The notes beneath the pieces were generated by a model that saw only the letters and a program-made list of their open reading frames with translations, was not told the DNA's origin and did not search any database. A stretch of DNA of 37,959 bases from Candidatus Moraniibacteriota bacterium (GTDB taxonomy: Bacteria > Patescibacteriota > Minisyncoccia > Moranbacterales > DUUL01), in assembly GCA_046497225.1 (NCBI GenBank), contig JAWOGA010000050.1:1-37959 (forward strand). The letters are read 5' to 3'. Made by a program: the position numbers and the translations under genes. Shown piece by piece: positions 3,994 through 37,959 of this stretch (within the stretch, counting starts at the first letter, position 1; every line of letters begins with the position of its first letter).

Positions 3994-4237
3994 CTTATTA
4001 TTAGTGATTATTTTTTCGCCGAATAAATTGGCAAAGTAACAAATAGTTATTTAAAGCTATAAATTTCAAAAACGTCCAACATTAGCAACAAAAGAGTTAT
4101 ACACAAAAAACAACACTCCAAGAAATCCTCGAGAGAGCTGGGACATGATAAACCCAATTCATAAATTTTTATAAACCACTAATAAGATCACCTTCTTTAA
4201 ATCACCAAACCTTAAAATTGTCAATTCCGATCCCCAA

Positions 4238-4408
4238 CTATTCCTTCCATTCCTTAATAACAATAGTGTTATTTTTAAATTCAACTAGAACCTTCTTTTT
4301 TTCATTCCACTCTAATTTCTTAATCATCCCTTTAGGTAACGTTAATGCATAACTATCACCGGTTCTAAATATTTTACGCGCTTTGCTTTGAGTTAATTTT
4401 TTTTTCAT
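4238..4408 (-). CDS. AbrB/MazE/SpoVT-type small DNA-binding protein (antitoxin-like); hand-translated, below the ORF-track size cutoff
   Basis: ATG at 4408, TAG at 4240-4238, 56 aa: MKKKLTQSKARKIFRTGDSYALTLPKGMIKKLEWNEKKKVLVEFKNNTIVIKEWKE. The segment GDSYALTLPKGMIKKL followed by a V-x-V-E strand is the pattern typical of SpoVT/AbrB swapped-hairpin domains. Confidence 0.55.
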   Translation of the reverse strand: MKKKLTQSKARKIFRTGDSYALTLPKGMIKKLEWNEKKKVLVEFKNNTIVIKEWKE

Positions 4409-4550
4409 AAAATTGAAACAGTTTAAATTATTAATTAGCTATTAGTACTTTCAAACAATCAAATTATTTGTACGGGATTTTAGTTGAAATAACTTTACAA
4501 GTATAGCAAAATTATTAATTTTTTAGTTTAAGATTATTAATCCCTGAATT

Positions 4551-4579
4551 TTGACTTGAAATAATTTTGGGTATATATT
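4551..4579 (+). promoter_or_regulatory. sigma-70-like promoter (TTGACT, 17 nt, TATATT) upstream of the DUF5320 gene
   Basis: TTGACT at 4551-4556 and TATATT at 4574-4579 with a 17-nt spacer. An 8-bp inverted repeat, GGGTATAT (4569-4576) / ATATACCC (4591-4598), overlaps the -10 box. Confidence 0.4.
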
Positions 4580-4661
4580 CATAATAAATAATATACCCCC
4601 TAGAAATTTAAATAATATTATGAAAATACCTATGAACTATTACGGAAAGGAGGTGATATTT

Positions 4662-4898
4662 ATGCCAAGATTTGATGAGACCGGTCCAACTGGAATGGGA
4701 CCCGGCACCGGAAGAGGAATGGGCCCTTGTGGTGGAGGATCCGGTTGGGGTCGTGGCAGAGGCTTTGGCCGAGGAAGAAGGTTTTGGTCTAGGAAGAATG
4801 AACTTCAAGCTCTGGAAGGAGAAAAGGAGATGCTCAAAGATGAATTAGAGGCTATCAAAGAAGAAATTGAAGCCTTGAAAGAAGAGAAAAATCAATAA
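4662..4898 (+). CDS. DUF5320-family protein (Gly/Arg-rich N-terminus plus C-terminal coiled coil)
   Basis: MPRFDETGPTGMGPGTGRGMGPCGGGSGWGRGRGFGRGRR followed by LEGEKEMLKDELEAIKEEIEALKEEK. I chose the ATG at 4662 because AGGAGGTG lies 6-7 nt upstream. The track start at 4620 has no such site. Confidence 0.75.
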   Translation: MPRFDETGPTGMGPGTGRGMGPCGGGSGWGRGRGFGRGRRFWSRKNELQALEGEKEMLKDELEAIKEEIEALKEEKNQ

Positions 4899-4910
4899 CA
4901 ATAAGCCCTT

Positions 4911-4935
4911 CCTTCCGCTTGCAAAAAGCGGAAGG
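4911..4935 (+). terminator. perfect 10-bp GC-rich hairpin after the DUF5320 stop codon (possible intrinsic terminator or attenuator)
   Basis: ccttccgctt / gcaaa / aagcggaagg. The downstream tract is T-rich but not a clean U-run (tggaattattattat). Confidence 0.4.
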
Positions 4936-5003
4936 TGGAATTATTATTATAAAAACATCTAAGAAGGCTAAATTTATTATAACATTTCCTTAGTTCAATT
5001 TCC

Positions 5004-5285
5004 ATGCCAAGATCTAAAATGTGCAGACGAATAAAATTCAACCCCAAAGTCACTTACTTTAAACCCCGAGGAGTGCCAATAAGAAATCTGGAGTTGATTC
5101 ACCTCTCAACAGAAGAAGCCGAAACCTTAAGACTTAAGGATGTTTTCAATTTAAGTCAAATTGAATGCGCCAAAAAAATGAACACCTCGCAGAGCACTTT
5201 CCAAAGAATTCTCTCCCGGGCCAGAAAAAAAGTTTCCCAGGCGATTATTCAGGGAAAATCGATTGAGATTGAAATCGAAAAGTAG
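5004..5285 (+). CDS. DUF134 (UPF0251) family putative DNA-binding protein
   Basis: 93 aa. MPRSKMCRRIKFNPKVTYFKPRGVP matches the characteristic DUF134 N-terminus. It is followed by an HTH-like LSQIECAKKMNTSQSTFQRILSRARKKV. Confidence 0.8.
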   Translation: MPRSKMCRRIKFNPKVTYFKPRGVPIRNLELIHLSTEEAETLRLKDVFNLSQIECAKKMNTSQSTFQRILSRARKKVSQAIIQGKSIEIEIEK

Positions 5286-5319
5286 AAATTAAAATTATCA
5301 CAGAAATACCGCCAGAAAA

Positions 5320-7468: not shown

Positions 7469-10138
7469 CTAATCGTCATCTTTTGAAATAAACAACTTCT
7501 TTCCGATTTCATAAATCGCAAGACTAACAATAGCATAAGTCCCCAGAATCAGCCATTCTTTTACTCCCAAGGGAACAGTACCGAGCAGCTCATTTAAGAA
7601 GGGTACATAAATTGCCAAAGCGATCATTAAAAACCCAAAGACTGTTGACCAGTTCACTAGTTTATTTTCGAAGGGATTGTAGGAAAAAATAGAGCGAGTT
7701 AGTCCACGAGCTGAAAAAATATACAACCGGGAAGCTATTCCTAGACCAACAAAAGCAATTGTTTGAGAATAAGACACATCTTGCGACAACCTCCAAGCAA
7801 TAAAAAACAATAAAAATAAAAGTCCGTCAGAAATAGCGGCAAAAAATAAAATCATTTTTTTCATACTTTTATTCAAAATCATTTCTCCAAACTTGCGGGG
7901 TTTTCTTTTCATAGCATTTTTATCCGTCGGATCAAAAGCTAGAGCCATAGCAGAAAAAGGTTCTTCTATTATTTTCATCCACAAAATTTGCACTGGTAAA
8001 AGAGCCAAAGGTAGGCCAAAGAGAATGGAAAGTCCTATCAATATTATCTCTGTAAAAGAACTAGACAAAAGATACAGTGTTATTTTCTTGATGTTGTCAA
8101 AAATCCCCCTTCCTCTTTCAATAGCTTTTACAATGGTTTTAAAATTGTCATCCAGTAAAACCAAATCGGCAGTCTCCTTGGCAATATCAGTTCCGGAGCC
8201 AACCGCAACTCCAATATCGGCTTTTTTAAGCGCCGGCGCATCATTGATTCCATCTCCCGTCATGGCAACAATCTCCTTTTTGCTTTGCAGCGCTTTAATT
8301 ATGCGAATTTTGTGTTTAGGCTCCACTCGAGCAAAAATGATAATTTTATCAATGGCTTTATTTAAATCCCTGTCAGACATATTTTTCATATCCACTCCCT
8401 CTAAAACATTTTTCTCTCCAGCCTCTAAGCCGAGCTCTTTAGCAACAGCCAACGCAGTCAACTTATGATCTCCCGTGATAATCATCGGCCGAATGCCGGC
8501 ACTCCAACAAGTTTTAATCGTTTTTTTTACCTCCGGACGAATGGGATCTTTGAGTGCTATAAAGCCAACAAAGACAAAGTTTTGGAGCTTGTTTTTACTA
8601 AGACTGAAATTTTGATCATCGCCTTTTTCTTTCTTGTAAGCAAGCGCTATCACTCGCAGTCCCTGGGCGGTCAAGTTATTACACTTCTCTTCAATGGATT
8701 TCTTTTTTTCCTCCGTCATCTCTAATACTTTTCCCTCTTTATCGAAATGAGAAATGAAAGACAAAATTCTCTCCGGGGCTCCTTTAAGATATTGAACTAT
8801 TTCATTTTGACCAAATTTGTGAGCAGTCGCCATATACTTATTTTTTGACTCGAAAGGAATTTCAGCCACACGAGGCATTTCTTTTTCAAGAATCCTTCTG
8901 TTTAATCCAGCAGATATCCCTCCTAAAAGCAAGGCTTTCTCAGTCGGATTGCCCGAGATCGACCACTTGTCAACTCTCTCTTCTGAATTTTCTACAATAG
9001 CATCATTACATAATACTCCAATTTTTAAAGCAGTGACATAACTAGCATTATTTGACAAATCAACTCCTCCGGAAAAACCCTCTCCTCCAATTAATATTTC
9101 CTTTTTCTCGGTTACGATCCTGGACATCCTCATCTTCCCCTTGGTTAAAGTTCCAGTCTTATCAGAACAAATAACGGAAATTGACCCTAGAGTTTCAGTG
9201 GTAATCATTCTTCTGATTAACCCTCTCTCTTTGGCCAATTTTTGCATTCCCACAGCTAAAATAACCGTCATGGCCGGCAAAAGACCCTCGGGAATGGCTG
9301 CTACAACCATAGCAACCGAGGTTAAAAACATTTCAAAAAAAGGCTCACCCTTAAAGACACCCAGCCCGAAAATAAAAATATTAACAACAATTAAGAATAT
9401 CCCTATAATTTTACCAAAAGCAAGCATCTGCTTTTGCAAAGAAGTTGTCTCCTCTTTTGTCTCCTGAACCAAATTAGCAATTTGCCCGACTTTAGTCGTG
9501 GCTCCGATTGAAACAACAACCGCAAGTCCAGTTCCTTGGGAAACTATGGTTCCCATATAAACCATGTTTTTCCTATCGGCCATGGCGGTTTTCCTGTCTA
9601 AGGTTTTGGTGTGCTTTAAAACCGGCGTAGACTCACCCGTAAGAGCCGCTTCTTCTACTCTTAAATTTGTTGCTTCAAATAAACGCGCATCTGCCGGAAT
9701 TTTGTCTCCAGAGCTTAATTTAATAACATCTCCCGGAACAACTTCTTCCTGCTTTATAATTATTTCTTTTCCTTCTCGAAGCACCTTAGCTTTGTACTTA
9801 ATCATTTGCTTTAAACGAGAAAGAGCAGTATTAGCTTTATATTCCTGCAGAAATCCAACCACAGTATTGATTGCAATTACAGCTGAAATTATCCAACCAT
9901 CGGTATAGTGCTTGGTGGCAAAGCTGATTATTAAAGCAAAAAATAAAATATAAATTAAAGGATTTTTAAATTGACCTAAAAAAATACCCAAGACCGAAAA
10001 ACGCTTCTTTTCAGGAATTTTATTAAAACCATAAATATTCAGCCTTTTTTGGACCTCGCTAGAAGAAATTCCCTCTCTTTTTGACTTGAGTAATTGGAAG
10101 GTTTTATCAATAGAAAAATAATGGTATTTCTTTGACAT
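7469..10138 (-). CDS. P-type cation-transporting ATPase (P2-type, Ca2+/Mg2+-like)
   Basis: 889 aa. Motifs: actuator LTGESTPV, phosphorylation site CSDKTGTLT, MITGDHKLTA, hinge TGDGINDAPALKKADIGVAVG. About 10 TM segments. Confidence 0.95.
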   Translation of the reverse strand: MSKKYHYFSIDKTFQLLKSKREGISSSEVQKRLNIYGFNKIPEKKRFSVLGIFLGQFKNPLIYILFFALIISFATKHYTDGWIISAVIAINTVVGFLQEYKANTALSRLKQMIKYKAKVLREGKEIIIKQEEVVPGDVIKLSSGDKIPADARLFEATNLRVEEAALTGESTPVLKHTKTLDRKTAMADRKNMVYMGTIVSQGTGLAVVVSIGATTKVGQIANLVQETKEETTSLQKQMLAFGKIIGIFLIVVNIFIFGLGVFKGEPFFEMFLTSVAMVVAAIPEGLLPAMTVILAVGMQKLAKERGLIRRMITTETLGSISVICSDKTGTLTKGKMRMSRIVTEKKEILIGGEGFSGGVDLSNNASYVTALKIGVLCNDAIVENSEERVDKWSISGNPTEKALLLGGISAGLNRRILEKEMPRVAEIPFESKNKYMATAHKFGQNEIVQYLKGAPERILSFISHFDKEGKVLEMTEEKKKSIEEKCNNLTAQGLRVIALAYKKEKGDDQNFSLSKNKLQNFVFVGFIALKDPIRPEVKKTIKTCWSAGIRPMIITGDHKLTALAVAKELGLEAGEKNVLEGVDMKNMSDRDLNKAIDKIIIFARVEPKHKIRIIKALQSKKEIVAMTGDGINDAPALKKADIGVAVGSGTDIAKETADLVLLDDNFKTIVKAIERGRGIFDNIKKITLYLLSSSFTEIILIGLSILFGLPLALLPVQILWMKIIEEPFSAMALAFDPTDKNAMKRKPRKFGEMILNKSMKKMILFFAAISDGLLFLLFFIAWRLSQDVSYSQTIAFVGLGIASRLYIFSARGLTRSIFSYNPFENKLVNWSTVFGFLMIALAIYVPFLNELLGTVPLGVKEWLILGTYAIVSLAIYEIGKKLFISKDDD

Positions 10139-13091: not shown

Positions 13092-13386
13092 ACAATAAAC
13101 AAATAAATAAGTTAATACGGTACCAACAAAGCCCCATCAAATATGAAACAGTTGAACCTTATCATTTTGGGCTTGAAAGATAAGGTATTGCCCTTATTGT
13201 GAAGCTGAAATGAAACTTGTACGGTATTCCGAGAACACAGAAAGAATTGAAAGATTGGCTTAGTCAGAAATAAGAAATACCAAAATTTATCACCTAGAAG
13301 GAACTATCTTGCTCCACCTCTACATTCTTCTATATTCATCGGTAATTCACCCTATGTGGTCTGTTCTCTAGTTCCTGGCAGAATAG

Positions 13387-14277
13387 TTAACGTGCACCAG
13401 CACATTCAACACAACCCGAGGCCGTTTCCATTTTAATAACTTTTCCTCCTGAGCAATAAATACCCTTTTTTGTTGCCCGAGAGACGCATTTGTTGCAAGT
13501 TTTAAAACAATACGGCCAATCATCCCAACAGCTTGGGTACCATCCATTCCAATCGCAGGAGATATCTCCTCCTGCCGAACCGACTTGGTCATCTACATAC
13601 TCCTTAGTCGCCGCATCTCTTCCGCTTGTTGGCCAAGATAGATTTGATATGTCTCTATAGTTCATATCAATATCCGCACGAACGTCTATCGGCTTTTTCC
13701 AACCGGTAGGATAGATATTGTCAAGATAGATTCTGCCGACATGCAATATATTACGACCGTTCATGTCCAGGTGGTCATACATATCAATGCTACCATATCC
13801 ACTCTTATAGATATCATTTAATCTAATATCATCCACATTAGTTATGTCATGTCCTGCCATGTTCAAATTCCCTCCGGCATAGTGAGTTCCGGAGTCTCCA
13901 ATATATTCATCTTCAGCCGTCACACATCCTCCGTCTTCAATACAAATCTTGTCTCCGGATTTATACAAATCTTGCCAGCTAGAACGACAGTCATTGCCAA
14001 TGCAAACCCTATTGCCTTTGACATAAGACCAAGAATAGTCATCAGCAATTACAGCTTGGTCTCCTTCTAGTACCGTGGCTCCAATGCCGGAACTTTTGTA
14101 CTGAGGTTGGCCCCCGGTATTTATCGGCGCGCCAATGTTGCTGTTGGGCGGATTACTGGGCGGACTTACCCAGGCTTGGGTGAATTGAATAAAGACTCCT
14201 AGGGATAATCCGATGGTTACTACACCCAGCCACCAAGAGATTTGGTCGGTGATTTTTTTGAGTTTGAGGTTTTTCAT
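13387..14277 (-). CDS. membrane-anchored/secreted protein with phage-tail-fibre-like repeats and a Cys-rich C-terminus
   Basis: N-terminal TM (ISWWLGVVTIGLSLGVFIQF) followed by AWVSPPSNPPNSNIGAPINTGGQPQYK. Three repeats: NMAGHDITNVDDIRLNDIY, DMNGRNILHVGRIYLDNIY, DMNYRDISNLSWPTSGRDAATKEYVD. Ten Cys in the last ~60 aa. Confidence 0.6.
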   Translation of the reverse strand: MKNLKLKKITDQISWWLGVVTIGLSLGVFIQFTQAWVSPPSNPPNSNIGAPINTGGQPQYKSSGIGATVLEGDQAVIADDYSWSYVKGNRVCIGNDCRSSWQDLYKSGDKICIEDGGCVTAEDEYIGDSGTHYAGGNLNMAGHDITNVDDIRLNDIYKSGYGSIDMYDHLDMNGRNILHVGRIYLDNIYPTGWKKPIDVRADIDMNYRDISNLSWPTSGRDAATKEYVDDQVGSAGGDISCDWNGWYPSCWDDWPYCFKTCNKCVSRATKKGIYCSGGKVIKMETASGCVECAGAR

Positions 14278-14338
14278 TTTTTTGCTTCAGTTATTAAATA
14301 TATCTTTAAAAAATATAAGGTATTATTTTTTATTAGAT

Positions 14339-14785
14339 TTAAGACTGCTTCAGTTCTTCTAATTCCTTCAATTGCTGTTTTATTTCTTCTTCCGACATTG
14401 GTTCGCTTTCTTGCTTGAGTTTATCCAATTCTTGAAGCTGGCTTTCTATGTCAGATTCATTTATATTGTTGTCTTCTTGGGTTGGATTGGTTTCTGTTTC
14501 TTGATTGTCAGTATTTGAGTTTTCTTCACTTTCTAACTGCTTCTTTTTTTCTTTTATGGCATCCAGCTGATTTAATTGATCTTCTATTTCTTCTTGATTG
14601 AATTCTTCCTGTTCTTCTTTCTGAGCAGATTCTTCTTGTTTTTTTTGAATTTGCAGTTCTTGTTCTTTTTGGGCTTCTTTTTCTTGTCTAACCTTCTCTT
14701 GAATAGAGAGATAGATAAATACTCCCGCTATGGCAAAGAGGGTAATTCCGAGGATTAGCAAGAAGATATCTCTTTTGTTTTGCAT
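14339..14785 (-). CDS. single-pass membrane protein with an acidic E/Q-rich coiled-coil ectodomain
   Basis: 148 aa. The TM anchor FLLILGITLFAIAGVFIYLSIQEK is paralogous to that of the next gene. The rest is low-complexity E/Q/K. Confidence 0.5.
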   Translation of the reverse strand: MQNKRDIFLLILGITLFAIAGVFIYLSIQEKVRQEKEAQKEQELQIQKKQEESAQKEEQEEFNQEEIEDQLNQLDAIKEKKKQLESEENSNTDNQETETNPTQEDNNINESDIESQLQELDKLKQESEPMSEEEIKQQLKELEELKQS

Positions 14786-14875
14786 ATTTTTTTTGATTGT
14801 TTTTAAATAATCCTTGACCTTAGTTTATATTTTTTTTGGGGTGTGTCAAGGGGAGATTTTTTCTTTTTTAAATTA

Positions 14876-15649
14876 TTATTCTTGATTAACTGCTTCGTCA
14901 ATCTCCTCTTGCTGAATTTGCTCTCCTTGTTCTTGGTTGGAGTTTTCTTCCTCGGGAGCAGGAACTTGATCTGTACTAGATTCTTCCATTGCATTTTCTT
15001 TATTTGCCGGTTTTTCTTCAAACACTTCAAATTCAATTTCAGCAGCGGTCAGTTGGGTTTTTTCGCGAATATCTTCATTGGCAAGCACAGTAATATATCG
15101 GCCTTCTTTTAGGTCTTGCAAGGATGCCTCAGAGCGGTTAAAAGGTTCCGGAGGATTTTGATTTTCTTCAAAATTTTCTTCATTGAAAGCTTCCGGATTT
15201 TCGGTAAGTTTATAAATTGAAGTTTCGTCAGTAATCTTTGCAGTTCTTTCCAGTCTGGTTTTATCGGCAAGAGGCGAAACGGAATCTGTATTAATTTTTA
15301 CTTGATTGTTTCCTGTGGAAATTATTTCTCCGGAAACGGAAGTTATTTCTTCTTCACTGCTTGGAGTAAATCCTAATGCTGCCAATCTCTTTTCTGCGGC
15401 TTCCCAGCCTGCTTGGAAAGTGTCTTTACTTTCAGATTTTAGTTCTTGATAGGTTTTGATTTGCGATTCCATTTCCTCATCTTTAGGAAGATTTTTTCCG
15501 GGTTCAGTTTCATTTTCAGAAAAGGATTTTTGACTTGACTGCTGATCTCTTGCCGCTTTCTCTTGAATGGAAAGGTAGATAAAGACTCCCGCTATGGCAA
15601 AGAGAAAAATGGAAAGAAGTATCAAGACTGTATTTTTTGTACTTTGCAT
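14876..15649 (-). CDS. single-pass membrane protein with an acidic extracellular region (paralogous anchor)
   Basis: 257 aa. Anchor is VLILLSIFLFAIAGVFIYLSIQEK, followed by an acidic S/E-rich region. Confidence 0.5.
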   Translation of the reverse strand: MQSTKNTVLILLSIFLFAIAGVFIYLSIQEKAARDQQSSQKSFSENETEPGKNLPKDEEMESQIKTYQELKSESKDTFQAGWEAAEKRLAALGFTPSSEEEITSVSGEIISTGNNQVKINTDSVSPLADKTRLERTAKITDETSIYKLTENPEAFNEENFEENQNPPEPFNRSEASLQDLKEGRYITVLANEDIREKTQLTAAEIEFEVFEEKPANKENAMEESSTDQVPAPEEENSNQEQGEQIQQEEIDEAVNQE

Positions 15650-15784
15650 TTGTTTGTTTTATTTATTGATAAATAATTTACTTTCATTTTAAAAAATTTT
15701 AAGAGAAAGATCAAGCACTCTAAAGCAATCAATTTGATTTGCAGAAAAATTCTCTTTTACTGCCTCTTTTTTGTTCTTAGAAGA

Positions 15785-16930
15785 TTATTCGTTTTCTAAA
15801 TCACAAACTGGGACGCAAACAGTAGCGCAAACATCGGCGCCGGGCTCGCATCCGGATCCGCATTCATCAAATGCTCCACCCTTTTCTTCACAGTCTTTGG
15901 CCAACAAGGAGGTGTCTTGGTTTTCTTCGTAAACAATTTTATTTTCAAATTCTTCTTTTGCTTCAACTTGAGCTTCTTCTTTCAATGCCCTCAACACTTC
16001 TTCTCTTAAGCCCTGTTCTTTTTCTTGATCAACAATAGCATCTTTTTCATATCCGTTAATCATACGAAACGCCCACCCGAAAAGACTAAAGCCTTCCTCG
16101 TTTTCTTGAATAAAATTCTTCATTTCTTCTCTTTCTTCCATTAAAAGCGCAATTTGATCCTGAACAATCTGCTTATTTTCCTCATCCTCCATCTGGCTTA
16201 AAGTTTGAGTTAATTGCCTAATCTGATTTTCATTCCGAACAAGACTGCTTCTTAGTTGACCCAGGTTTTTGTAATCACTCCCTATGATAAACTCTGCCAC
16301 TCCTTTTCTTTTTTCAACTTTCTCAATCGCCCTGGAAGTATCTTCGCCCTCTTCTTGTTGCTGTTTTGCTACTTGATTTATTCTATTTTGAATTTTCTCA
16401 GATTCTCCTTGAGCTGCTTGTTGCAACCTTTGAGCTACTTCATTGGAAATTGATTTATGCAGCCCGGATTTATTTCCTTTTGATTGGGAAATTTTTTCTT
16501 CAATTTTTTGATGAGCTTTATTTAAAGTTTCTTTTGATGAGTTAATTTGCTTACCCTTGTTATCAACGCCTCTTCCGGATGCGTCTTCCTGTTTCTCTTG
16601 AATTTGTATCCGATTTTCCTGATTTTCTCCTTGATTTTTTAAATTATTATTCTCATTATTGGCATTTCCCGGAACATTTCTGCCGGAATTACCCGGGCTT
16701 TCATTATTGGAATCACCATCATTTAAATTTCTCTTTTCAACAGAAGAACTTGGGTCATCTTTCAAAGTGGGTGTATTATCTTCTTCGGTATTTTCATTGC
16801 TGTTCCCTCCGGCGTTATTAGACGGATTTACTACTTGTTGAGCATATGCCGCCCCGAGATTAAATACCAAGGCTCCCAAAAAACTCACTGCAACAAAAGA
16901 TAGTACTTTTTTACTTATTATTATTTTCAT
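15785..16930 (-). CDS. secreted low-complexity/coiled-coil protein with a Cys-rich C-terminal knot
   Basis: Signal-peptide-like N-terminus (SFVAVSFLGALVFNLGAAYA/QQ). N/E/Q-rich middle. C-terminus is CEEKGGAFDECGSGCEPGADVCATVCVPVCDLENE (8 Cys). Confidence 0.55.
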   Translation of the reverse strand: MKIIISKKVLSFVAVSFLGALVFNLGAAYAQQVVNPSNNAGGNSNENTEEDNTPTLKDDPSSSVEKRNLNDGDSNNESPGNSGRNVPGNANNENNNLKNQGENQENRIQIQEKQEDASGRGVDNKGKQINSSKETLNKAHQKIEEKISQSKGNKSGLHKSISNEVAQRLQQAAQGESEKIQNRINQVAKQQQEEGEDTSRAIEKVEKRKGVAEFIIGSDYKNLGQLRSSLVRNENQIRQLTQTLSQMEDEENKQIVQDQIALLMEEREEMKNFIQENEEGFSLFGWAFRMINGYEKDAIVDQEKEQGLREEVLRALKEEAQVEAKEEFENKIVYEENQDTSLLAKDCEEKGGAFDECGSGCEPGADVCATVCVPVCDLENE

Positions 16931-20644: not shown

Positions 20645-20958
20645 TATTGCCGGCTATTCTTATATACATCTTTTAATTCCAAATGACAAAATCCTAATGA
20701 CAAATCAAGTTCAAAGACCAAATGATAAAATAATGAAAGAACCTGTTTTTTTGATTCATATAGCTATAGACTCCTTATTTACAATTGATTAAAAGAATCA
20801 TTTGACATTTAGCCATTTAATCCTAGAATTCTATTATATTTACCTGCAATTTTCTCTGAAAGAGCCAAAGATCTTAATCTCTTGTTTTTTAAAAAAATTG
20901 CAGAAAAACAAAATATCCATAAAGCTTATTTTTATCCAAAAAAATCCAAAAAAACAAT

Positions 20959-20987
20959 TTGACACAAATCAACAACCGTGATATGAT
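20959..20987 (+). promoter_or_regulatory. sigma-70-like promoter (TTGACA, 17 nt, TATGAT) about 225 nt upstream of the 21213 gene
   Basis: TTGACA at 20959-20964 and TATGAT at 20982-20987 with an exact 17-nt spacer. Confidence 0.4.
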
Positions 20988-21212
20988 TAATTATCAAATC
21001 AGATGTCGGACGATTAGAATTCAAACATTCCGACTTATTAAATTTGAGGATAATAATTTTAAATAACTCAAAGAAGCAGTACAACTGATTGAAATCAATA
21101 ATCCGAATAACTCGGAAATAATTATTTAAGTTTATATAAATTTACTTTATATGCACTGAATTATCAGGATTTCAGCAAAGGATAAATAATTTAAATTCAC
21201 AAATTTCCATTT

Positions 21213-22325
21213 ATGAAAATAACAAGAAAAAATTTAGATAAATTGACTTGGGATGTCTTAAGCCAAGCAAGAGAAAGGGGGCAGAAGGTTTTCATTTTGA
21301 GATTTGGATTGAACGGAAAACAACCTTGGTCTTTAGCTAAAATCGGGAAATCAATGAATATAACCAGAGAACGAGTTAGACAAATAGAGTCGGAAAACTT
21401 TAATAAAATAAAAAAGTCTCAAAAAGGAGAAGACTTTGATAAATTTGAACAAAAAGCTCTGGCAATAATCCAAAAAAGGCAAGGTATCTGCGAAAAAATG
21501 CTATTAAAAACATCTTTAGTAGACAATCCCTCAGAAAAAGAAATTAATCAGTTAATATTCTTATTGAATTGTTCTAAAAAAATCAACTATAAAAAAGAAA
21601 CCGTTCACTTACAAGGATATTGGACAATAAATAACGAAATTAATCCTCAAAAAATTTCCGCTTTCAGTGAATTATTAACTAAAATAATTAAAAAACAAAA
21701 AAAACCTTTGTTATTTAATGAGATAAAAAATATTATCCAAAAAGAGGAAATTGATTCTTTTTTCAAAAAGAATGGAATTCTAGAAACTTGCTTAATATTA
21801 AACAAAAACCTAAAAAGAAACATTTTGGGAGAATGGGGACTAAAAAGCTGGTCGACCGTTTCAGAAAGAGGAAATAAAGAAAAGGCTTATTTGGTTTTAA
21901 AAAAACAACAAAAAACTCTTTACTATAAAGATATAACTAATTATATAAACAACTACTGGTCCACCAAGCCAAATCCGGCAATACTTGATGAAGTCGCCTA
22001 TCGCCAAACTTATGAAGAAAAAAACAGAAGGTCTCTTGCGCAAACTGTTCATAATGAACTCATTAAAGATGAAAGATTCGTACTAGTAGGCAGAGGTATC
22101 TATGGACTCAAAGAATGGGGGCTTAAAAAAGGAACTGTCAAAGAGCTGATCATAGAATTACTAAAGAATAAACAAGAGCCTCTCCATAGCAAAGAAATTA
22201 TTGATTATGTGCTTCAAAATAGAAAAGTTAAGAGAATGACAGTATTGGTAAACCTTGCCGATAAAAATATCTTTGAAAAATTATCAAAAGGGCGTTATAC
22301 TTTAAAGGCAGAAAATATAAAATAA
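21213..22325 (+). CDS. DNA-binding protein: sigma-70 region-4-like HTH plus HARE-HTH/winged-helix modules
   Basis: N-terminal FILRFGLNGKQPWSLAKIGKSMNITRERVRQIESENFNKI resembles sigma region 4.2. The middle part, AYLVLKKQQKTLYYKDITNYI...TVHNELIKDERFVLVGRGIYGLKEWG, fits the HARE-HTH pattern (D-x-RF...G-x-Y/W-G-L-x-x-W). A second similar module lies at the C-terminus (ELIIELLKNKQEPLHSKEIIDYV...KGRYTLK). Confidence 0.65.
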   Translation: MKITRKNLDKLTWDVLSQARERGQKVFILRFGLNGKQPWSLAKIGKSMNITRERVRQIESENFNKIKKSQKGEDFDKFEQKALAIIQKRQGICEKMLLKTSLVDNPSEKEINQLIFLLNCSKKINYKKETVHLQGYWTINNEINPQKISAFSELLTKIIKKQKKPLLFNEIKNIIQKEEIDSFFKKNGILETCLILNKNLKRNILGEWGLKSWSTVSERGNKEKAYLVLKKQQKTLYYKDITNYINNYWSTKPNPAILDEVAYRQTYEEKNRRSLAQTVHNELIKDERFVLVGRGIYGLKEWGLKKGTVKELIIELLKNKQEPLHSKEIIDYVLQNRKVKRMTVLVNLADKNIFEKLSKGRYTLKAENIK

Positions 22326-22340
22326 TTTTTAATATAAAAA

Positions 22341-23711
22341 ATGCCTGCCGCTAAAAGAAATCCGGAAAAAGAATATAAGAACTTCATCCTCTTCTTGATT
22401 GGGTTGGGGGTTTTAGTATTTGCCGCTTCTTATTTTTTTGTTACCTCGGAAGAATCAGTTATTCTTGTTTACACTTGGAAAATTCTGGCCAACTTATGGT
22501 GGATAATTTTTCCTATACCTCTTTGGATGATTTTTCAAAAAGCTTGGTTTGAATACGGAGCCTTCTCTTTTGGCAGTAAGCAGGATTATGTTTTTCTTGA
22601 ATTTATCCCTCCCATTGATGTAGAAAAAAGCCCCAAAATTGTAGAACAAATATTCACGGGAATTCACACTTGGAGCGCGCCTAACTTATTTGAAAAATAC
22701 TGCGGGTGGAGGCCGTTACAGGATAAATTCAGTTTTGAAATTGCTTCCACTGGAGATGAGGCAGTTCACTTTTTCGTCCGTTGTCCAAAAGCGGCCAGAG
22801 ATTTAGTAGAAGCTCAAATTTACGCCCAATATCCGGATGCTGAAATATTTGAAGTAGACGATTACACCAAGAATATCCCCAAAAATATCCCCAATAAAAA
22901 CTGGGATGTTTGGGGAACTGTTTTGACCCTTTTGGATATGAAAAACCCCAAACCCATTAGAACTTACAAAAACTTTAAGGAGGACGTCACCGGTTATATG
23001 ATAGATCCTTTAGGCTCGTTAGTAGAAGTTATGAATAAACTCTCCCCGCATGAGCAAATCTGGCTTCAAATCATTATCACTCCCGACAATGAACCCAATT
23101 GGAGACCTCCGTTTAAAGAGAAAATAGATGAATTTTGCGGTCTTAAAAAAGCCACCTCCCCGGGAGCAGGAACTGTACTTTTTACAACAATTTCGGATTT
23201 TTTTGCCAATATTTTCAGGGCCGCCGGCGGGAAAGAATTGCAGTACACGGAATTAAAAGAAGAGGAAAAAAAAGAATTTAATGTAAACCAATTAACTCCT
23301 GTTCAACAAAATGTAGTGGAAGAAATGGAGAGGAAACTATCCAAACCTGGATTTAAAACAACAGTCAGAATTGTATATGTTGGCAGGAGAGAATTCTTCA
23401 ATAAGGCTAGAGGAGTAGCAGGAACTATGGGCGCAATCAAGCAATTCAACGATTCAAATCTAAATGCATTTTTGACTGATAATAGAACCAAAACTTTTGC
23501 CAATTACTATTTTGGAGAACCTAGGCTGAAATTTCGGCAAAGAAAAATTGTAAGCGATTTTAGAGGCAGGGACGGAGCCGGAATCAGTTACATTTTTATT
23601 CCGGAAGAACTTGCCAGCATGTACCACTTCCCGGATATGTCTGTTAAATCAAGTGCTATCCGAAGAGTGGAGGCTAAAAAGAGCGAAGCCCCGACTAATC
23701 TACCAATGTAA
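22341..23711 (+). CDS. hypothetical 2-TM membrane protein, predicted partner of the downstream coupling-type ATPase
   Basis: Two N-terminal TM helices (FILFLIGLGVLVFAASYFFV, ILANLWWIIFPIPLWMIF), then a ~380-aa soluble domain. It starts 15 nt after the HTH gene and ends 90 nt before the ATPase gene. Confidence 0.55.
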   Translation: MPAAKRNPEKEYKNFILFLIGLGVLVFAASYFFVTSEESVILVYTWKILANLWWIIFPIPLWMIFQKAWFEYGAFSFGSKQDYVFLEFIPPIDVEKSPKIVEQIFTGIHTWSAPNLFEKYCGWRPLQDKFSFEIASTGDEAVHFFVRCPKAARDLVEAQIYAQYPDAEIFEVDDYTKNIPKNIPNKNWDVWGTVLTLLDMKNPKPIRTYKNFKEDVTGYMIDPLGSLVEVMNKLSPHEQIWLQIIITPDNEPNWRPPFKEKIDEFCGLKKATSPGAGTVLFTTISDFFANIFRAAGGKELQYTELKEEEKKEFNVNQLTPVQQNVVEEMERKLSKPGFKTTVRIVYVGRREFFNKARGVAGTMGAIKQFNDSNLNAFLTDNRTKTFANYYFGEPRLKFRQRKIVSDFRGRDGAGISYIFIPEELASMYHFPDMSVKSSAIRRVEAKKSEAPTNLPM

Positions 23712-23801
23712 GAATAAAATCTTTTTTAAATTTAATATCTCTATACCCCTCAATCGATTCTCTCTATTTTTAATACAAGACGAATAAAACAAGTTAGCAA
23801 T

Positions 23802-25577
23802 ATGAACAAAGAAATAAACTTTTTCGCAAAAACCAATTTTCGCAACAAGGAAAGGGTTTTCGGTATAAAAACCGATGACAGGAGGCGCCACTCTTATGTA
23901 GTGGGTAAAACCGGAATGGGCAAAACCAACCTTATTCAAAATATGGCCATGCAAGATATTCGGGACGGGAAAGGCGTAGCAATTGTAGATCCACACGGAG
24001 AATTTGCAGAAGAGTGTTTAAAAGCGGTTCCGTCAAGCAGAATTAATGATGTCATATATTTCAATCCGGCTGATACGGACTTCCCTATAGCTATGAATGT
24101 AATGGAGAAAGTGGACTCGGAGTATAAACACCTAGTAGCTTCCGGGCTAGTAGGAGTTTTCAAAAAAATATGGGCTGATTCCTGGGGACCTAGATTGGAA
24201 TATTTATTAAGAAACGCCATCCTAGCACTTCTTGAGTACCCCACTTCTACCCTACTGGGAGTTCCAAGGATTTTAATAGACAAGTCTTACCGAGAAAAAG
24301 TAGTAGAAAAAGTAACCGACCCGGTAGTAAAAGCTTTTTGGACCGAAGAATTTTCTAAATACAACAACAACTTCGCTACAGAAGCAATCGCCCCGATACA
24401 AAACAAGGTCGGCCAATTCTTGTCCAGCTCTCTGATTAGAAATATTGTAGGACAAACCAAATCAGCTTTTTCTATGAGAGAAGTTATGGATAATAAGAAG
24501 ATCCTAATAATGAATCTCTCCAAAGGAAGAGTCGGAGAAGACAACAGCGCTCTTTTAGGAGCTATGATGATTACCAAGATTCAATTATCAGCCATGGCCA
24601 GAGTGGACATGCCTGAAAATAAAAGAGAGGACTTTTATATGTACGTGGACGAATTCCAAAACTTTGCCACAGAGTCTTTTGCTAATATTTTATCAGAGGC
24701 CAGAAAATACCGACTGAATTTAATTTTAGCTCATCAATATATTAGTCAACTTGATGAAAAAGTGCGAGATGCGGTTATGGGAAACGTTGGCACCATTATA
24801 ACCTTCAGAGTAGGAGCCGCCGATGCTGAATTTTTGGAAAAAGAATTTGAGCCAGTCTTCTACGCCAACGATTTAGTAAATTTGGCAAAATACAATGTTT
24901 ACTTAAAGTTAATGATAGACGGGGTTTCCACTCAACCATTTTCCGCAACCACATTACCTCCGGTTGAAATAGAGAGCACCTATGAAAATCTGGAAAAAAT
25001 CGTTAAAGTATCCAGAGAAAGATACGCCTCTCCGCGAGCCGAAGTGGAAGAAAAAATCTCCAGATGGAGCGGTTTTTTGAAAAGCGAAGTTAAAAGCAAA
25101 GTTAAAGAGCTCGTAAAAGAAGAAAAAAACTTCCAAAAAACCGATACCCCAAAGCCAGTCGACAGCAACCAAGAGCAAAAAAAACAGGAAACGAGGAAAG
25201 AGTCTCCCTCCGAGAAAGACACCGAAAAACAAAAGAAGAACGAAAAAGAGGGAGCATTAGACGAAAAGGGTCGCGAACTACACAAAACAAACTGCTCCGC
25301 CTGTGGAACTGAAATTGAAGTTCCCTTCAAACCCGACGGCAGTAGACCGGTTTTCTGCAAAGAGTGTCTAAGGGAATATAGACGTCAGCAAAGTCAACTT
25401 CAAGAAGATTTAACAAAAAATAATACCCCCTCCGGAAAACAACCAACTAAGAAACAACCAAACAAATCCAATTTTTCCAAAAACAATGATTTGCAACCAA
25501 ATTATTCAAAAAACAAAAATGATAACTCCTTAAAAGAACTGATCAACCAAGCAATGGAAGACAAAAAAGATAAGTAG
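23802..25577 (+). CDS. VirD4/TraD/TraG-like (type IV coupling protein-like) P-loop ATPase lacking TM helices, with a C-terminal CxxC-x17-CxxC zinc ribbon
   Basis: Walker A VVGKTGMGKTNL, VDPHGE, Walker B FYMYVDEFQNF, and ILAHQYISQL...GNVGTIITFRVG, which is TraG-D_C-like. A K/E/Q-rich linker leads to CSACGTEIEVPFKPDGSRPVFCKEC, followed by a K/N-rich tail. Confidence 0.8.
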   Translation: MNKEINFFAKTNFRNKERVFGIKTDDRRRHSYVVGKTGMGKTNLIQNMAMQDIRDGKGVAIVDPHGEFAEECLKAVPSSRINDVIYFNPADTDFPIAMNVMEKVDSEYKHLVASGLVGVFKKIWADSWGPRLEYLLRNAILALLEYPTSTLLGVPRILIDKSYREKVVEKVTDPVVKAFWTEEFSKYNNNFATEAIAPIQNKVGQFLSSSLIRNIVGQTKSAFSMREVMDNKKILIMNLSKGRVGEDNSALLGAMMITKIQLSAMARVDMPENKREDFYMYVDEFQNFATESFANILSEARKYRLNLILAHQYISQLDEKVRDAVMGNVGTIITFRVGAADAEFLEKEFEPVFYANDLVNLAKYNVYLKLMIDGVSTQPFSATTLPPVEIESTYENLEKIVKVSRERYASPRAEVEEKISRWSGFLKSEVKSKVKELVKEEKNFQKTDTPKPVDSNQEQKKQETRKESPSEKDTEKQKKNEKEGALDEKGRELHKTNCSACGTEIEVPFKPDGSRPVFCKECLREYRRQQSQLQEDLTKNNTPSGKQPTKKQPNKSNFSKNNDLQPNYSKNKNDNSLKELINQAMEDKKDK

Positions 25578-35595: not shown

Positions 35596-36007
35596 AATAA
35601 ACACAAATTCAAAAAGCTTGAATAACCGGAGAAGAAAAAACAAAAGCTAATGTACAAAATGCCAAAATGCCAAAAATCATTAAGACCAATTCTAAAGTAT
35701 TATTCTTAATCATGCCTATTTCTTCTTAATTTAAATAAAAATATTTCAGGTTATTGAATGTTTAAATTTTACCAAAGAATAACAAAATATAAAAGTAAGT
35801 ATAATCTAATCTTTATAAAATATCAAGTCCAAATATTTTCAATCCCTGATATTTGCCAGTCTAAGTTCTCAAAGACTGCTACAATAATGCAGTAATCTTA
35901 GAGAACAAAAGCAAGAATACTCCATAGTTTATTAGTACTTCTCGGCTAAATACGTTGCCGTACTTATACCTGAAGCCTATCAACCCGGTCTTCTTCCGGG
36001 AAACTAT

Positions 36008-36157
36008 CCGTTGCACAGCAACGGAATTTCGAATTTTAAATTTTGAATTTCGAGTAAATAAATAATTTTTGAATTTTAAATGATTAAAGCATTTAATTAT
36101 TCAAAATTGATTCAAAATTCGAAATTCTATCTTCAAAATTCCGATGCTGTGCATCGG
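36008..36157 (-). other. 23S insertion 1 (3'-terminal variable helix, about H98): 116-nt AT-rich core between two near-identical 17-nt GC-rich palindromes
   Basis: ccgttgcacagcaacgg (36008-36024) and ccgatgctgtgcatcgg (36141-36157) flank the core at 36025-36140. The core's two halves are imperfectly complementary (aatttcgaatttt...aaaattcgaaatt). Confidence 0.8.
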
Positions 36158-36176
36158 GGTTGCTTTATCTTGAGGT

Positions 36177-36213
<37 letters not shown>

Positions 36214-36740
36214 ATGAACATAGCTACCCAGCTGTGCCCTTGGCAGGAACAACTGGTACACCAGAGGTTGCACTCTTTCCGGTCCTCTCGTACTAGGAAA
36301 GAATCCTCTCAAGCAACAACGCCTACGGCAGATAGAGACCGACCTGTCTTACGACGGTCTGAACCCAGCTCGCGTACCTCTTTAATTGGCGAACAGCCAA
36401 ACCCTTGGGACCTGCTACAGCCCCAGGATGAGATGAGCCGACATCGAGGTGCCAAACACCGCCGTCTATATGAACTATTGGGCGCTATTAGCCTGTTATC
36501 CCCGGGGTAACTTTTGTCTGCTGATCTTCTGCGCTACTATAAGCGACAGTCGGTTCACTAAATCCTGCTTTCGCAACTGATCGACTGATGAGTCTTTCAG
36601 TAAAGCCGGCTTATGGTTTTGTCCTATCGATCCGATTTCCATCCGGATCTAGCCGACCTTTGTGAGCACCTCCGTTACATTTTAGGAGGTATCCGCCCCA
36701 GATAAACTACCCACCAGGCACTGTCCCCGGACTGGTAACA

Positions 36741-36857
36741 AATTTCGAATTTCTAATTCTGAATTTTAAATCAATTTTAAAAAAATAAATTCAAATTTTC
36801 AAAATTCAGTCATTTGAACTTCAATCAAAATTCAAAATTTAGAATTCAAAATTTATT
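36741..36857 (-). other. 23S insertion 2 (about H79 region): ~117-nt AT-rich imperfect hairpin
   Basis: It lies between the conserved GGAATACCACCCTG... and GGACAGTGCCTGGTGGGTAGTTT tracts (minus-strand sense). E. coli has only a short hairpin here (from memory). Confidence 0.75.
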
Positions 36858-37321
36858 AACAGCCCAGGGTTAGCATTCAAAATTATGCAGGGTGGTATTC
36901 CACTGATGACTCCATCCCGACCGGAATCGGGACTTCAAAGTCTCCCACCTATGCTCGGCAGCATAATCTCGAACGCAATGCCAAGTTGTAGTAAAGCTCC
37001 ACGGGGTCTTTTCGTCTTGCCGTAGGTAGAGGGCATCTTTACCCCCATTGCAATTTCACCGGGTCCTTCGTTGAGACAGTTGCCTAGTCGTTACGCCTTT
37101 CATGCGGGTCAGTAATTAGCTGACAAGGAATTTCGCTACCTTAGAACGATTATAGTTATCGCTGACGTTCACCGGCGCTTCGGGGATTGGCTTGCACCGC
37201 TCCCGTTAACGTTCCGGCACTGGTCAGGCGTCAGCCCCTATACATCCCCTTGCGGGTTTGCAGAGACCTGTGTTTTTGGTAAACAGTCGCCAGGCATCTT
37301 TAGCTGCGGCCGATCGCTTCG

Positions 37322-37494
37322 CATCGCGCTCCGCGCGATGACTCGCTCAAATTCAAAAATTAAAGTTCAAATGTCAAAATTTTGGTGTCCTGAATGTTCG
37401 GGATGGATTTAAAATAATCATCCCGAAGGGATACCTTCATTTTGATTTTTGACTTTTACATTTTGAGTTTAGTGAGTATCACACGTAGTGTGAT
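37322..37494 (-). other. 23S insertion 3 (about H63 variable region): AT-rich arms with a central GC hairpin, bounded by two GC mini-hairpins
   Basis: Bounded by catcgcgctccgcgcgatg (37322-37340) and atcacacgtagtgtgat (37478-37494). The core is 37341-37477 and contains ttcgggatgg...catcccgaa. Confidence 0.75.
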
Positions 37495-37868
37495 GCGAAC
37501 GAACGGCGGTCCTTATCCCGAAGTTACGGACGCTGTTTTGCCGAGTTCCTTAACGAAGGTTCTCCCGTTCACCTTGGGCTACTCGCCCTGTCTACCTGTG
37601 TCGGTTTGCGGTACGGTTGCTATGCTATTAACTTTAGAAGTTTTTCCTGGCACCCTGCTCACTTTTGTTCTCCCGAGTAAACTCGGTTTTCCAGACATTT
37701 CTTGGTGTATTGCCGGACGGATTTACCTATCCGACCACCTCAAAATGCCTACCGGAATCCAATAACCGGCAAAAGCTACTAGGATGCGTCACTCCATCAG
37801 ATAACATAGCAGTACAGGAATATTAACCTGTTGTCCATCGACTACCCCCCAGCGTTCGCTTCGCGAAC

Positions 37869-37959
37869 TTTAATTTCGAATTTTTAATTTAAAATTTCGA
37901 ATGAAATCCTAATGTCTTAATGATTAAATAATTAAAAATTAAAACATTTAAAATTGATT
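37869..37959 (-). other. 23S insertion 4 (domain III, 5' of the GTAGTCGATGG tract), truncated by the window end
   Basis: The GC mini-hairpin gttcgc-ttc-gcgaac (37854-37868) is followed by the same tttcgaattt/aaaatt-type AT-rich sequence to the end of the window. Confidence 0.6.

Follow-up and report, generated by a model that had tools for sequence, protein, structure and literature searches.

A conserved operon of Patescibacteria that probably encodes a type IV coupling protein in two pieces

What is a motor protein of the conjugation type doing among the housekeeping genes of a bacterial chromosome? The question is raised by a stretch of 37,959 bp (the window) from a metagenome-assembled genome (MAG) of Candidatus Moraniibacteriota, where three co-oriented open reading frames (ORFs) on the + strand, designated A, B and C here, lie between miaA and a tRNA-Cys gene with intergenic gaps of 15 nt (A-B) and 90 nt (B-C). 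Gene A (21213-22325) encodes a 370-aa protein with a sigma-70 region 4.2 and HARE-HTH winged-helix domains, which is predicted to be a partner or regulator that binds DNA and/or RNA polymerase. Gene B (22341-23711) encodes a protein of 456 aa annotated as DUF8128 (PF26449), probably the membrane anchor and N-terminal half of a split type IV coupling protein (T4CP) of a long form, and gene C (23802-25577) encodes a 591-aa protein, probably the TrwB/VirD4-type ATPase half, which has no transmembrane (TM) segments and ends in a tail. The three frames had been called in an earlier reading of the sequence alone (the original prediction), with which their translations agree. It is very likely that B and C together constitute a two-piece long-form T4CP anchored by B. 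Beyond this, we favor, at a probability of roughly 55%, a working model in which this protein fulfills a coupling function linked to nucleic acids, with A as its adaptor or regulator, and probably cooperates with a type IV secretion system (T4SS). The operon is conserved and largely undescribed, and it represents a variant of a T4CP, not a categorically new system.

B and C correspond to the two halves of a single protein found elsewhere in the Patescibacteria. When the ORFs of related loci were clustered, an 852-aa ORF (P0388, locus L039) pulled B and C into one cluster. Residues 79-408 of this fusion align to residues 95-455 of B (E 2e-19) and residues 419-831 to residues 13-419 of C (47% identity, E 1e-137), with the junction ~10 residues after the B-like part. 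Such fused proteins constitute a family in the Patescibacteria with 2,169 matches, annotated with DUF8128 and T4CP domains; the best 120 of these are mostly ~830-890 aa long and 55-100% identical to the query. A single PHROG profile, phrog_5156 (824 positions), also covers both proteins, B at positions 74-289 and C at positions 402-818. The break point of the split copy is located in the inter-domain linker, just past a conserved ELAxxYHFP motif. A structural model of the fusion (pLDDT 78.7, pTM 0.53) gave full-length TrwK as its top ten Foldseek matches (E 4e-14 to 3e-11, ~900 columns, TM-score ~0.3), followed by TrwB, roughly 420 residues in length, which matched the C-like half over ~410-440 columns (TMt 0.59-0.64, root-mean-square deviation 5-6 Å). 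The suggestion of a split coupling protein, already made in the original prediction, is supported by these Rosetta-stone fusions and by the shared PHROG profile. At each of three loci inspected, the fused paralogue (~850 aa, without a zinc finger; L039 84-2642, L086 10001-12547 and L087 10001-12508) is flanked by small conserved ORFs without a family match and lies close to dnaX; its genomic context, too, is one of housekeeping genes.

The ATPase encoded by C matches the motors of T4CPs in its motifs as well as in its domains. It contains a Walker A motif, GKTGMGKT (residues 35-42, 23904-23927, read from the translation), a Walker B motif, YVDEFQNF (residues 281-288, 24642-24665, from the translation and the alignment to the fusion), and a sensor-like motif, AHQYISQL (residues 310-317, 24729-24752). 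These motifs and the likeness to TraG-D_C had been pointed out before and were all recovered. The counterparts of the Walker A residues in the fused paralogues (G441, G444, G446 and K447 in the first sequence) form invariant columns, and the D-E pair and the Q of the Walker B motif are invariant across the aligned fused paralogues. Pfam assigns C to TrwB_AAD_bind (PF10412, E 2.7e-15, 56.6 bits with a cut-off of 20.5) and TraG-D_C (PF12696, E 2.5e-6, 27.8 bits with a cut-off of 22), and its best sequence matches in the PDB are TrwB and then DotL. The Walker motifs are separated by ~240 residues, a putative inserted helical domain; the corresponding stretch of the fused paralogue (47% identity) is modeled as helical (H512-H640). 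The hydropathy profile revealed no hydrophobic segments in C, in agreement with the earlier view that the ATPase has no N-terminal TM anchor of its own and that the upstream gene supplies it, the hairpin being found in B. C is under strong constraint: the top 120 clusters retrieved with it are 58-80% identical to the query, compared with ~41-75% for the top matches of B. In some lineages, a third, C-only paralogue of 478-481 aa, 41-44% identical to C and without a zinc finger, is encoded just downstream of C, for example at L049 5563-6999 and L070 ~8358-9608.

B starts with a putative membrane hairpin of two hydrophobic helices (residues ~15-66, 22383-22538). Hydropathy indicates a strong segment at residues ~15-34 and a weaker one at ~45-66, and an AlphaFold2 model (pLDDT 79.6) places helices at residues 8-35, 39-56 and 58-80, followed by an alpha/beta domain. 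Both the N terminus and the C-terminal domain of B are predicted to be cytoplasmic, the latter because the B-like domain is directly fused to the cytoplasmic ATPase in the paralogues. The alpha/beta domain (residues ~83-430, 22587-23630) has no NTPase motifs, and its predicted fold is VirB4-like: all 12 Foldseek matches of the B model with E ≤1e-3 are TrwK/VirB4 proteins (E 7e-6 to 9e-4, TM-scores 0.31-0.37). Since a B profile found no match among all PDB sequences at E values up to 10, this likeness is at the level of the fold only. The linker motif, EELASMYHFPD in B (residues 422-432, 23604-23636), is near-invariant in 31 B orthologues. Its counterparts are ELASIYHFPL in the fusion, directly before the ATPase domain, and PELAALAHLP in a T4CP encoded on an Embleya plasmid. 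Precomputed annotation labels B and most of its homologues as PF26449/DUF8128; local Pfam, NCBIfam and PADLOC searches with B yielded nothing significant (best PADLOC match E 0.028), the local Pfam copy presumably lacking the DUF8128 model, and a literature search found no paper naming DUF8128. Identity of B among its top matches is ~41-75%. A profile search of a representative library retrieved 3,235 clusters, and the 150 listed were all stand-alone B proteins, without new remote families among them. The picture of B as two TM helices with a large soluble domain, given in the original prediction, stands, but the role of a mere anchor does not: B is the N-terminal domain of a long-form T4CP family.

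Members of this family are also found on mobile elements. A tblastn search of plasmids with the C motor revealed relatives in Streptomyces, Bacillus, Staphylococcus, Clostridium, haloarchaea and Sulfolobus. On the Embleya plasmid, the match corresponds to the C-terminal half of a T4CP with 812 aa, which is encoded in an actinobacterial T4SS cluster with the gene order PrgI (VirB3-like), VirB4-like ATPase, T4CP, Replic_Relax, NlpC-P60. In hhalign comparisons, the whole length of this T4CP was matched by the profile of the fused family (probability 100%, E 2.7e-49), and the B profile was collinear with its N-terminal domain as far as the linker motif common to both (E 1.2e-3, probability 19%). 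The fused family likewise matched gp156 (825 aa) of Bacillus phage G over its full length (E 1.5e-38), and the B profile matched the N-terminal domain of gp156 (E 5e-9, probability 96%). In phage G, gp156, which is annotated as "MsbA-like", adjoins the VirB4-like gp155 (L090 720-4862). SPO1-like phages, such as Bacillus phage CampHawk (L091 2247-5784), encode a 906-aa homologue followed by Replic_Relax (PF13814), with a ParM-like gene upstream. These phage loci look like conjugation-type ATPase modules in lytic phages. The long-form T4CPs (Embleya, gp156, the SPO1-like proteins and phrog_5156) have the same N-terminal domain, nucleotide-binding domain and ELAxxxHxP linker motif as the fused paralogue and as B and C together. 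Unlike the split B and C, however, those of mobile elements are single polypeptides encoded beside VirB4-like ATPases and/or Replic_Relax, and the Embleya and phage proteins have no zinc finger in Pfam scans and no A-like partner among the flanking genes shown. As far as the literature found goes, they are uncharacterized. The repeated pairing of the long T4CP with VirB4-like ATPases and DNA-processing proteins is the main reason to favor a DNA-related role. A further match, on a Sulfitobacter plasmid (39% identity), is a stand-alone 395-aa ATPase beside transposases and was uninformative.

How does the B-C pair compare with coupling proteins of known systems? With TrwB, TraD and VirD4, C shares the TrwB-type P-loop nucleotide-binding domain, and, like TraD, it ends in a flexible tail with a conserved element at its terminus. 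Almost all of the soluble domain of TrwB is covered when the C-like half of the fused model is superposed on it (TMt ~0.6). In contrast to canonical T4CPs, the C polypeptide lacks a TM domain and has a zinc finger in its tail, whilst the separate B also bears a domain of ~350 aa that TrwB does not have. Moreover, the trio shows no linkage to relaxase or VirB genes; it resides on the chromosome of nearly all Patescibacteria and is passed on vertically. T4CPs without a TM domain that are combined with a separate membrane protein are a recognized subclass, exemplified by TraJ/TraI of pIP501 (PMC7434980; PMC13037476). There, a soluble T4CP is encoded beside a membrane protein thought to anchor it, which is the same logic as in B and C. 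However, such anchors are reviewed as small membrane proteins, whereas B, compared with them by description, has 456 aa and a large conserved cytoplasmic domain; and TraI and TraJ belong to a 15-gene conjugative tra operon, whereas the trio is isolated on the chromosome without a tra operon.

VirB4 proteins, such as TrwK of R388, may share with B and C together a two-domain layout, in which a membrane-associated N-terminal domain precedes a RecA-like ATPase, and TrwK was the top structural match of both the B model (E 7e-6) and the fusion model (E 4e-14), at TM-scores of only ~0.3. The option of a "split VirB4" was rejected, as the fused-family profile meets a true VirB4-like ATPase over the nucleotide-binding domain only (E 1.8e-6, versus 2.7e-49 for the Embleya T4CP). 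The VirB4 models CagE_TrbE_VirB, AAA_10 and P-loop_TraG matched neither B nor C at E values up to 1. The fusion matched AAA_10 at E 0.049, and the true VirB4-like neighbors in Embleya and phage G do match VirB4 models. The predicted VirB4-like fold of the N-terminal domain may be of interest for the relationship between VirB4 and VirD4, at the level of the fold, homology not being established.

The tail of C carries two features that had not been described in the original prediction. The first is a treble-clef zinc finger of the type CxxC-x17-CxxC (residues 491-525, 25272-25376; PF23477 E 7.8e-14, TIGR04272 E 1.2e-14), which is flanked by low-complexity linkers rich in Lys and Glu. Of 118 close orthologues of C, 117 have this finger; of 120 fused paralogues, none has. 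Domains of this type bind zinc experimentally in small proteins of Methanosarcina (PMC12704099). The second is the motif SLKELINQAM at the end of the disordered tail (residues 576-585, 25527-25556), a candidate docking helix. In its strict form, the motif was found in 67 of the 118 orthologues, without background matches elsewhere in these proteins, and again in none of the 120 fused paralogues; most of the other C orthologues listed bear the variant NLDEVRxLIK. No A-like gene was found beside the fused paralogue in the loci inspected. Since the zinc-finger tail and A are both tied to the split copy, we propose that A docks on the tail of C.

A contains a sigma region 4 helix-turn-helix (HTH) domain (residues 21-68, 21273-21416; Pfam PF04545, Sigma70_r4, E 1.7e-10) and three stretches matching HARE-HTH, the best of which comprises residues 307-364 (22131-22304; PF05066 E 8e-14); both Pfam matches agree with its earlier description as a multi-HTH protein. 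A further conserved HARE-HTH-like block spans residues ~195-302 and includes an RNA polymerase delta-like stretch (residues 257-302). In solved structures, region 4 of A is nearest to that of RpoD/SigA (e.g., 1tlh, E 6.5e-9), and it also resembles the MzaA sigma factor in NCBIfam and PADLOC scans. The best-conserved segment of A, among 68 orthologues, is the recognition-helix motif of sigma region 4.2, IG..Y.ITRERVRQIE; the protein as a whole is ~30-45% identical to its relatives (tblastn). Region 4 alone matches in A, whilst Sigma70_r2 and Sigma70_r3 gave no match in Pfam and NCBIfam searches. Without regions 2 and 3, A is not a sigma factor; the true rpoD of the window (574-1878) carries all sigma regions. 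Nor is A the delta subunit of RNA polymerase (RpoE), as it reaches 40.3 bits with TIGR04567, of which the cut-off is 42, over residues 257-302 only, and as the combination of sigma region 4 with several HARE-HTH domains differs from the RpoE architecture, in which one N-terminal HARE-HTH precedes an acidic tail. A diverged Replic_Relax protein was also considered and rejected, since no similarity was found. A literature search for "HARE-HTH" with "sigma" yielded nothing relevant.

Outside the Moraniibacteriota MAG, the three genes stay together. A genome scan with B detected it in at least 582 species-level genomes, and 80 loci were retrieved for context. The position immediately upstream of B is occupied by A in 70 of the 75 loci where this could be tested, and the one immediately downstream by C in 69 of 72. 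Both neighbors are there, and the A-B-C series is complete, in 62 of 68 testable genomes; the genes share one strand throughout. This is far beyond chance and settles in the affirmative whether the trio co-occurs elsewhere. The flanking genes vary by lineage and have housekeeping functions, including secD-secF, secA, a divergent dnaX operon (in Moranbacteria), mnmA, alaS and efp. Immediately upstream of A, secD-secF is present in ~33 of the 80 loci, and secA lies a few genes further up in ~8; the window has lgt-tsaD-miaA at this position. The adjacency of secD-secF could reflect a gene order retained by descent or a functional tie with Sec. Integrase, relaxase or T4SS genes do not recur around the trio loci, and no relatives of B were found in 2.9 million viral contigs. 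The locus that is closest to that in the window and lies on a 1.3-Mb contig (L001) has two tandem paralogues of 440-458 aa directly after C (13327-14703 and 14773-16095), each with an N-terminal T4SS_pilin domain of the VirB2 type (26.9 bits, cut-off 26.6). Such genes follow the trio in this lineage only and not in the window or in the other 80+ loci.

The window itself is ordinary chromosome, with housekeeping genes outside the trio: rpoD, dnaG, a P-type ATPase gene, nusB, lgt, tsaD, miaA, tRNA-Cys, tRNA-Leu and genes for uracil-DNA glycosylase, MazG, an AP endonuclease, two tRNA-Ser, pyruvate kinase, an M48 peptidase and LemA, followed by recO and 5S and 23S rRNA genes. VirB4, VirB6, VirB8, relaxase, pilin and integrase genes are absent from its 38 kb. 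The original prediction had found the window free of VirB4, relaxase, pilin and integrase genes and had placed the module on a chromosome, not on a conjugative element; gene annotation, the recurrence of the trio on chromosomes and the absence of B from viral contigs agree with this. Its label "stand-alone" holds for the locus and probably not for the genome, as surveyed Moranbacteria have a VirB3-TrsD-VirB4(-VirB6) cluster hundreds of genes away. No T4SS lies just outside the locus, though related genomes have one elsewhere.

The operon is preceded by near-consensus promoter sequences. The best site (20959-20987, + strand) consists of TTGACA, a 17-nt spacer and TATGAT with a TG extension and has 11 of 12 matches; a second site (20802-20829, + strand; TTGACA-16-TAGAAT) also has 11 of 12. 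Both are putative promoters. Region 20645-21212 of the window was compared with the regions upstream of A in 42 related loci. In these 43 regions, perfect TTGACA was counted 43 times in forward and twice in reverse orientation, where shuffled sequences lead one to expect 2.7. It is about six times as dense here as in front of the other genes of these loci (4.5 versus 0.74 per kb), and it is usually trailed ~17 nt later by an extended -10 element, TGnTAnnAT. Altogether, 38 of the 43 loci have a near-consensus promoter 5' of A. As A carries a sigma region 4.2 helix of the type that reads the -35 box, autoregulation or competition by A at its own promoter is conceivable. A scan of the + strand showed no convincing intrinsic terminator 3' of C, and the totals of promoters and terminators across the region do not exceed the shuffled expectation.

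These observations can be combined in the following working model. B would provide a membrane hairpin and a cytoplasmic N-terminal domain of ~350 residues, and C a TrwB-type motor, i.e., a nucleotide-binding domain with an inserted helical domain. Because the break lies in the inter-domain linker, the ELAxxYHFP tail of B is expected to keep a ring of C ATPases on the inner side of the membrane. Only the split copy has acquired a tail, flexible and rich in Lys and Glu, that bears a zinc finger and ends in a docking-like motif; the fused paralogue has not. The docking role suggested for SLKELINQAM is by analogy with the tail of TraD, which binds TraM. A would bind DNA, or RNA polymerase on DNA, and would either present a nucleoprotein substrate to the tail of C or regulate the operon. 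The B-C complex may then spend ATP to engage or move the substrate at the membrane and, where a Patescibacteria-type T4SS is present, would probably hand it over to that system. The operon as a whole would be a chromosomal module that is inherited vertically and strongly expressed, and that was domesticated from a coupling protein encoded by a conjugative element of monoderms or by a phage. We infer the physical assembly of B with C, the formation of hexamers, DNA as the substrate, the adaptor role of A and the cooperation with a T4SS. Handling of nucleic acids fits the TRERVRQIE segment and the HARE-HTH domains of A, as well as the zinc finger and the terminal motif of C, which are specific to the A-associated copy.

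Coupling-protein genes of this kind have been surveyed before. Among 3,035 genomes of Patescibacteria, VirB4 was reported in 2,417, and 5,713 VirD4-like T4CP homologues in 2,918, i.e., about two per genome, only 148 of which are near virB4 (Quinonero-Coronel et al., 2025, PMC12102498). These orphan VirD4-like genes are very probably the same genes as C and the fused paralogue, and the ~two copies per genome match one split copy plus one fused paralogue. In Table S3, Moranbacteria have two T4CP-like genes, both far removed from the VirB3-TrsD-VirB4 cluster, and there are Woesebacteria that are VirB4-negative and still have a T4CP (PMC12102498). The survey also describes the T4SS as essential for epibiotic growth in one genetically tractable species, unconnected to conjugation (PMC12102498). 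The terms HTH, sigma and zinc are absent from its main text, and the sections consulted contain no description of a DUF8128 partner or domain, of a link between split and fused forms or of a three-gene operon (PMC12102498). VirD4 and T4CP are not named in Wang 2023, and the literature found contains no description of the trio, of the split/fusion link or of a partner such as A. The original prediction that the apparatus is uncharacterized therefore needs qualification: orphan VirD4-like genes have been reported in Patescibacteria (PMC12102498), whilst the anatomy of the trio is undescribed in the literature found.

Several points weigh against our model. Genes for a T4SS, a relaxase or a nickase were found neither in the window nor, in relatives, at distances of up to 10 kb from the trio. 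The structural evidence for C comes from a model of the 47%-identical fused paralogue, and the likeness of B to VirB4 comes with TM-scores of ~0.3 and without sequence support against solved structures. A may be only a transcription factor. In Southlakia epibionticum, the T4CP homologue was non-essential, whilst the T4SS was essential (PMC12102498); here, two paralogues could mask each other. Finally, the numbers given in the survey, 2,918 genomes with a T4CP versus 2,417 with VirB4, mean that at least 501 genomes keep the ATPase without a T4SS, which argues against an obligate coupling to this system.

The latter argument, together with the behavior of the operon as a core gene, makes a role independent of a T4SS the main rival explanation, which we consider rather unlikely but ahead of the other alternatives. 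The hairpins of B (12 helices per hexamer) and a ring of C would then constitute a minimal translocase for the uptake, export or segregation of DNA or nucleoprotein, in which A selects the DNA, similar to FtsK or to TraB of Streptomyces with the parts separately encoded. Consistent with such autonomy, the trio never adjoins T4SS genes; T4CP-like genes are present in 96% of the genomes in the survey versus 80% for VirB4, with some VirB4-negative Woesebacteria in Table S3 keeping their T4CP; and strong conservation, housekeeping context and a near-consensus promoter suggest a core cellular function. The authors of the survey state that exaptation of orphan T4CPs cannot be ruled out (PMC12102498). 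However, no pore-forming part is evident, as the hairpin of B is short and its external loop minimal, and T4CPs are not known to move DNA across a membrane by themselves. Moreover, the homologues on mobile elements adjoin VirB4-like ATPases, and incomplete MAGs inflate the number of VirB4-negative genomes.

Somewhat less probable still is that B and C couple protein effectors to the T4SS of Patescibacteria, with A as the transcription factor of the operon, for instance an autoregulator that competes for the -35 box. The T4SS of Patescibacteria lacks relaxases and is thought to be co-opted for non-conjugative roles; DotL and Cag-beta, which couple proteins, are both among the structural matches; and perfect TTGACA sequences lie 5' of A, the helix of which reads the -35 box. 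Against this, the relatives on mobile elements pair with the DNA-processing Replic_Relax, and the zinc finger and Lys-rich tail suggest, as weak evidence, contact with nucleic acids. A protein of 370 aa with four HTH-type domains that is conserved over many lineages of Patescibacteria would also be unusual as a local repressor. A core machine without a T4SS, in which A tethers DNA or transcribing RNA polymerase via the zinc-finger tail of C to a membrane-bound motor derived from a T4CP, is about as doubtful. Region 4 of A would then bind the -35 box or the beta flap, and the motor would move or organize nucleic acid at the membrane, for example in exchange with the host cell or in the handling of imported DNA.

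A segregation or repair translocase of the FtsK/HerA type with a known type of partner is very improbable. C has a partial match to DUF87 (E 2e-8) and a weak one to HerA_C at the P-loop (E 0.031), and HerA is found among the structural matches. However, TrwB outscores HerA in sequence as well as in structure. C has no match to FtsK_SpoIIIE (PF01580) at E values up to 1, and the fusion has one of only E 0.022, at the P-loop. NurA is absent from the window, and so are the HAS-barrel and the FtsK gamma domain from the proteins. Hence, the question whether the ATPase clusters with FtsK/HerA rather than with coupling proteins is answered in the negative, its best family and structure matches being TrwB. 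Transcriptome studies of the saccharibacterium TM7x discuss FtsK, so that some Patescibacteria may have an FtsK of their own, and the idea of a split FtsK was dropped on these grounds and because C is of the T4CP type. Least probable of all is an antiphage defense role, suggested by a match of C (residues 17-367) to PADLOC mad8 of the MADS system (E 1.4e-18) and by the resemblance of region 4 of A to MzaA, and dropped because of the genomic context: the other genes of the eight-gene MADS operon and of MZA are absent, the locus encodes no methyltransferase or nuclease, B has no significant PADLOC match (best E 0.028), and vertical, phylum-wide inheritance at 58-80% identity among housekeeping genes is not what defense islands look like.

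Two other regions of the window deserve mention. Between dnaG and a 198-aa ORF, 1.3 kb (3994-5319) contain no ORF of at least 100 aa on either strand and no Rfam match at the gathering threshold. The partial 23S rRNA gene (35913-37959, - strand) covers model positions 1405-2925 (1,521) in 2,047 nt and thus has ~500 extra nucleotides, for which no curated intron family matched. Weak matches to a microRNA-precursor model on both strands at 35984-36188 within this gene suggest a long hairpin or inverted repeat.

The analysis gives the orphan coupling proteins of Patescibacteria an anatomy, with a fused long form, a split form with a zinc-finger tail, a sigma region 4/HARE-HTH partner and a near-consensus promoter, and it links this family to uncharacterized long T4CPs of an actinobacterial T4SS cluster and of Bacillus phages. 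The VirB4-like predicted fold of the N-terminal domain in a T4CP family raises an evolutionary point as well. The Patescibacteria (Candidate Phyla Radiation) represent a large share of bacterial diversity and have an epibiont lifestyle. If the T4SS-independent machine were real, it would be a domesticated conjugation motor in a new housekeeping role, which would explain why T4CP-like genes are kept in ~96% of the Patescibacteria genomes in the survey, even without VirB4. A motor that works without a T4SS would be a clear case of a component of conjugation domesticated for core cell biology.

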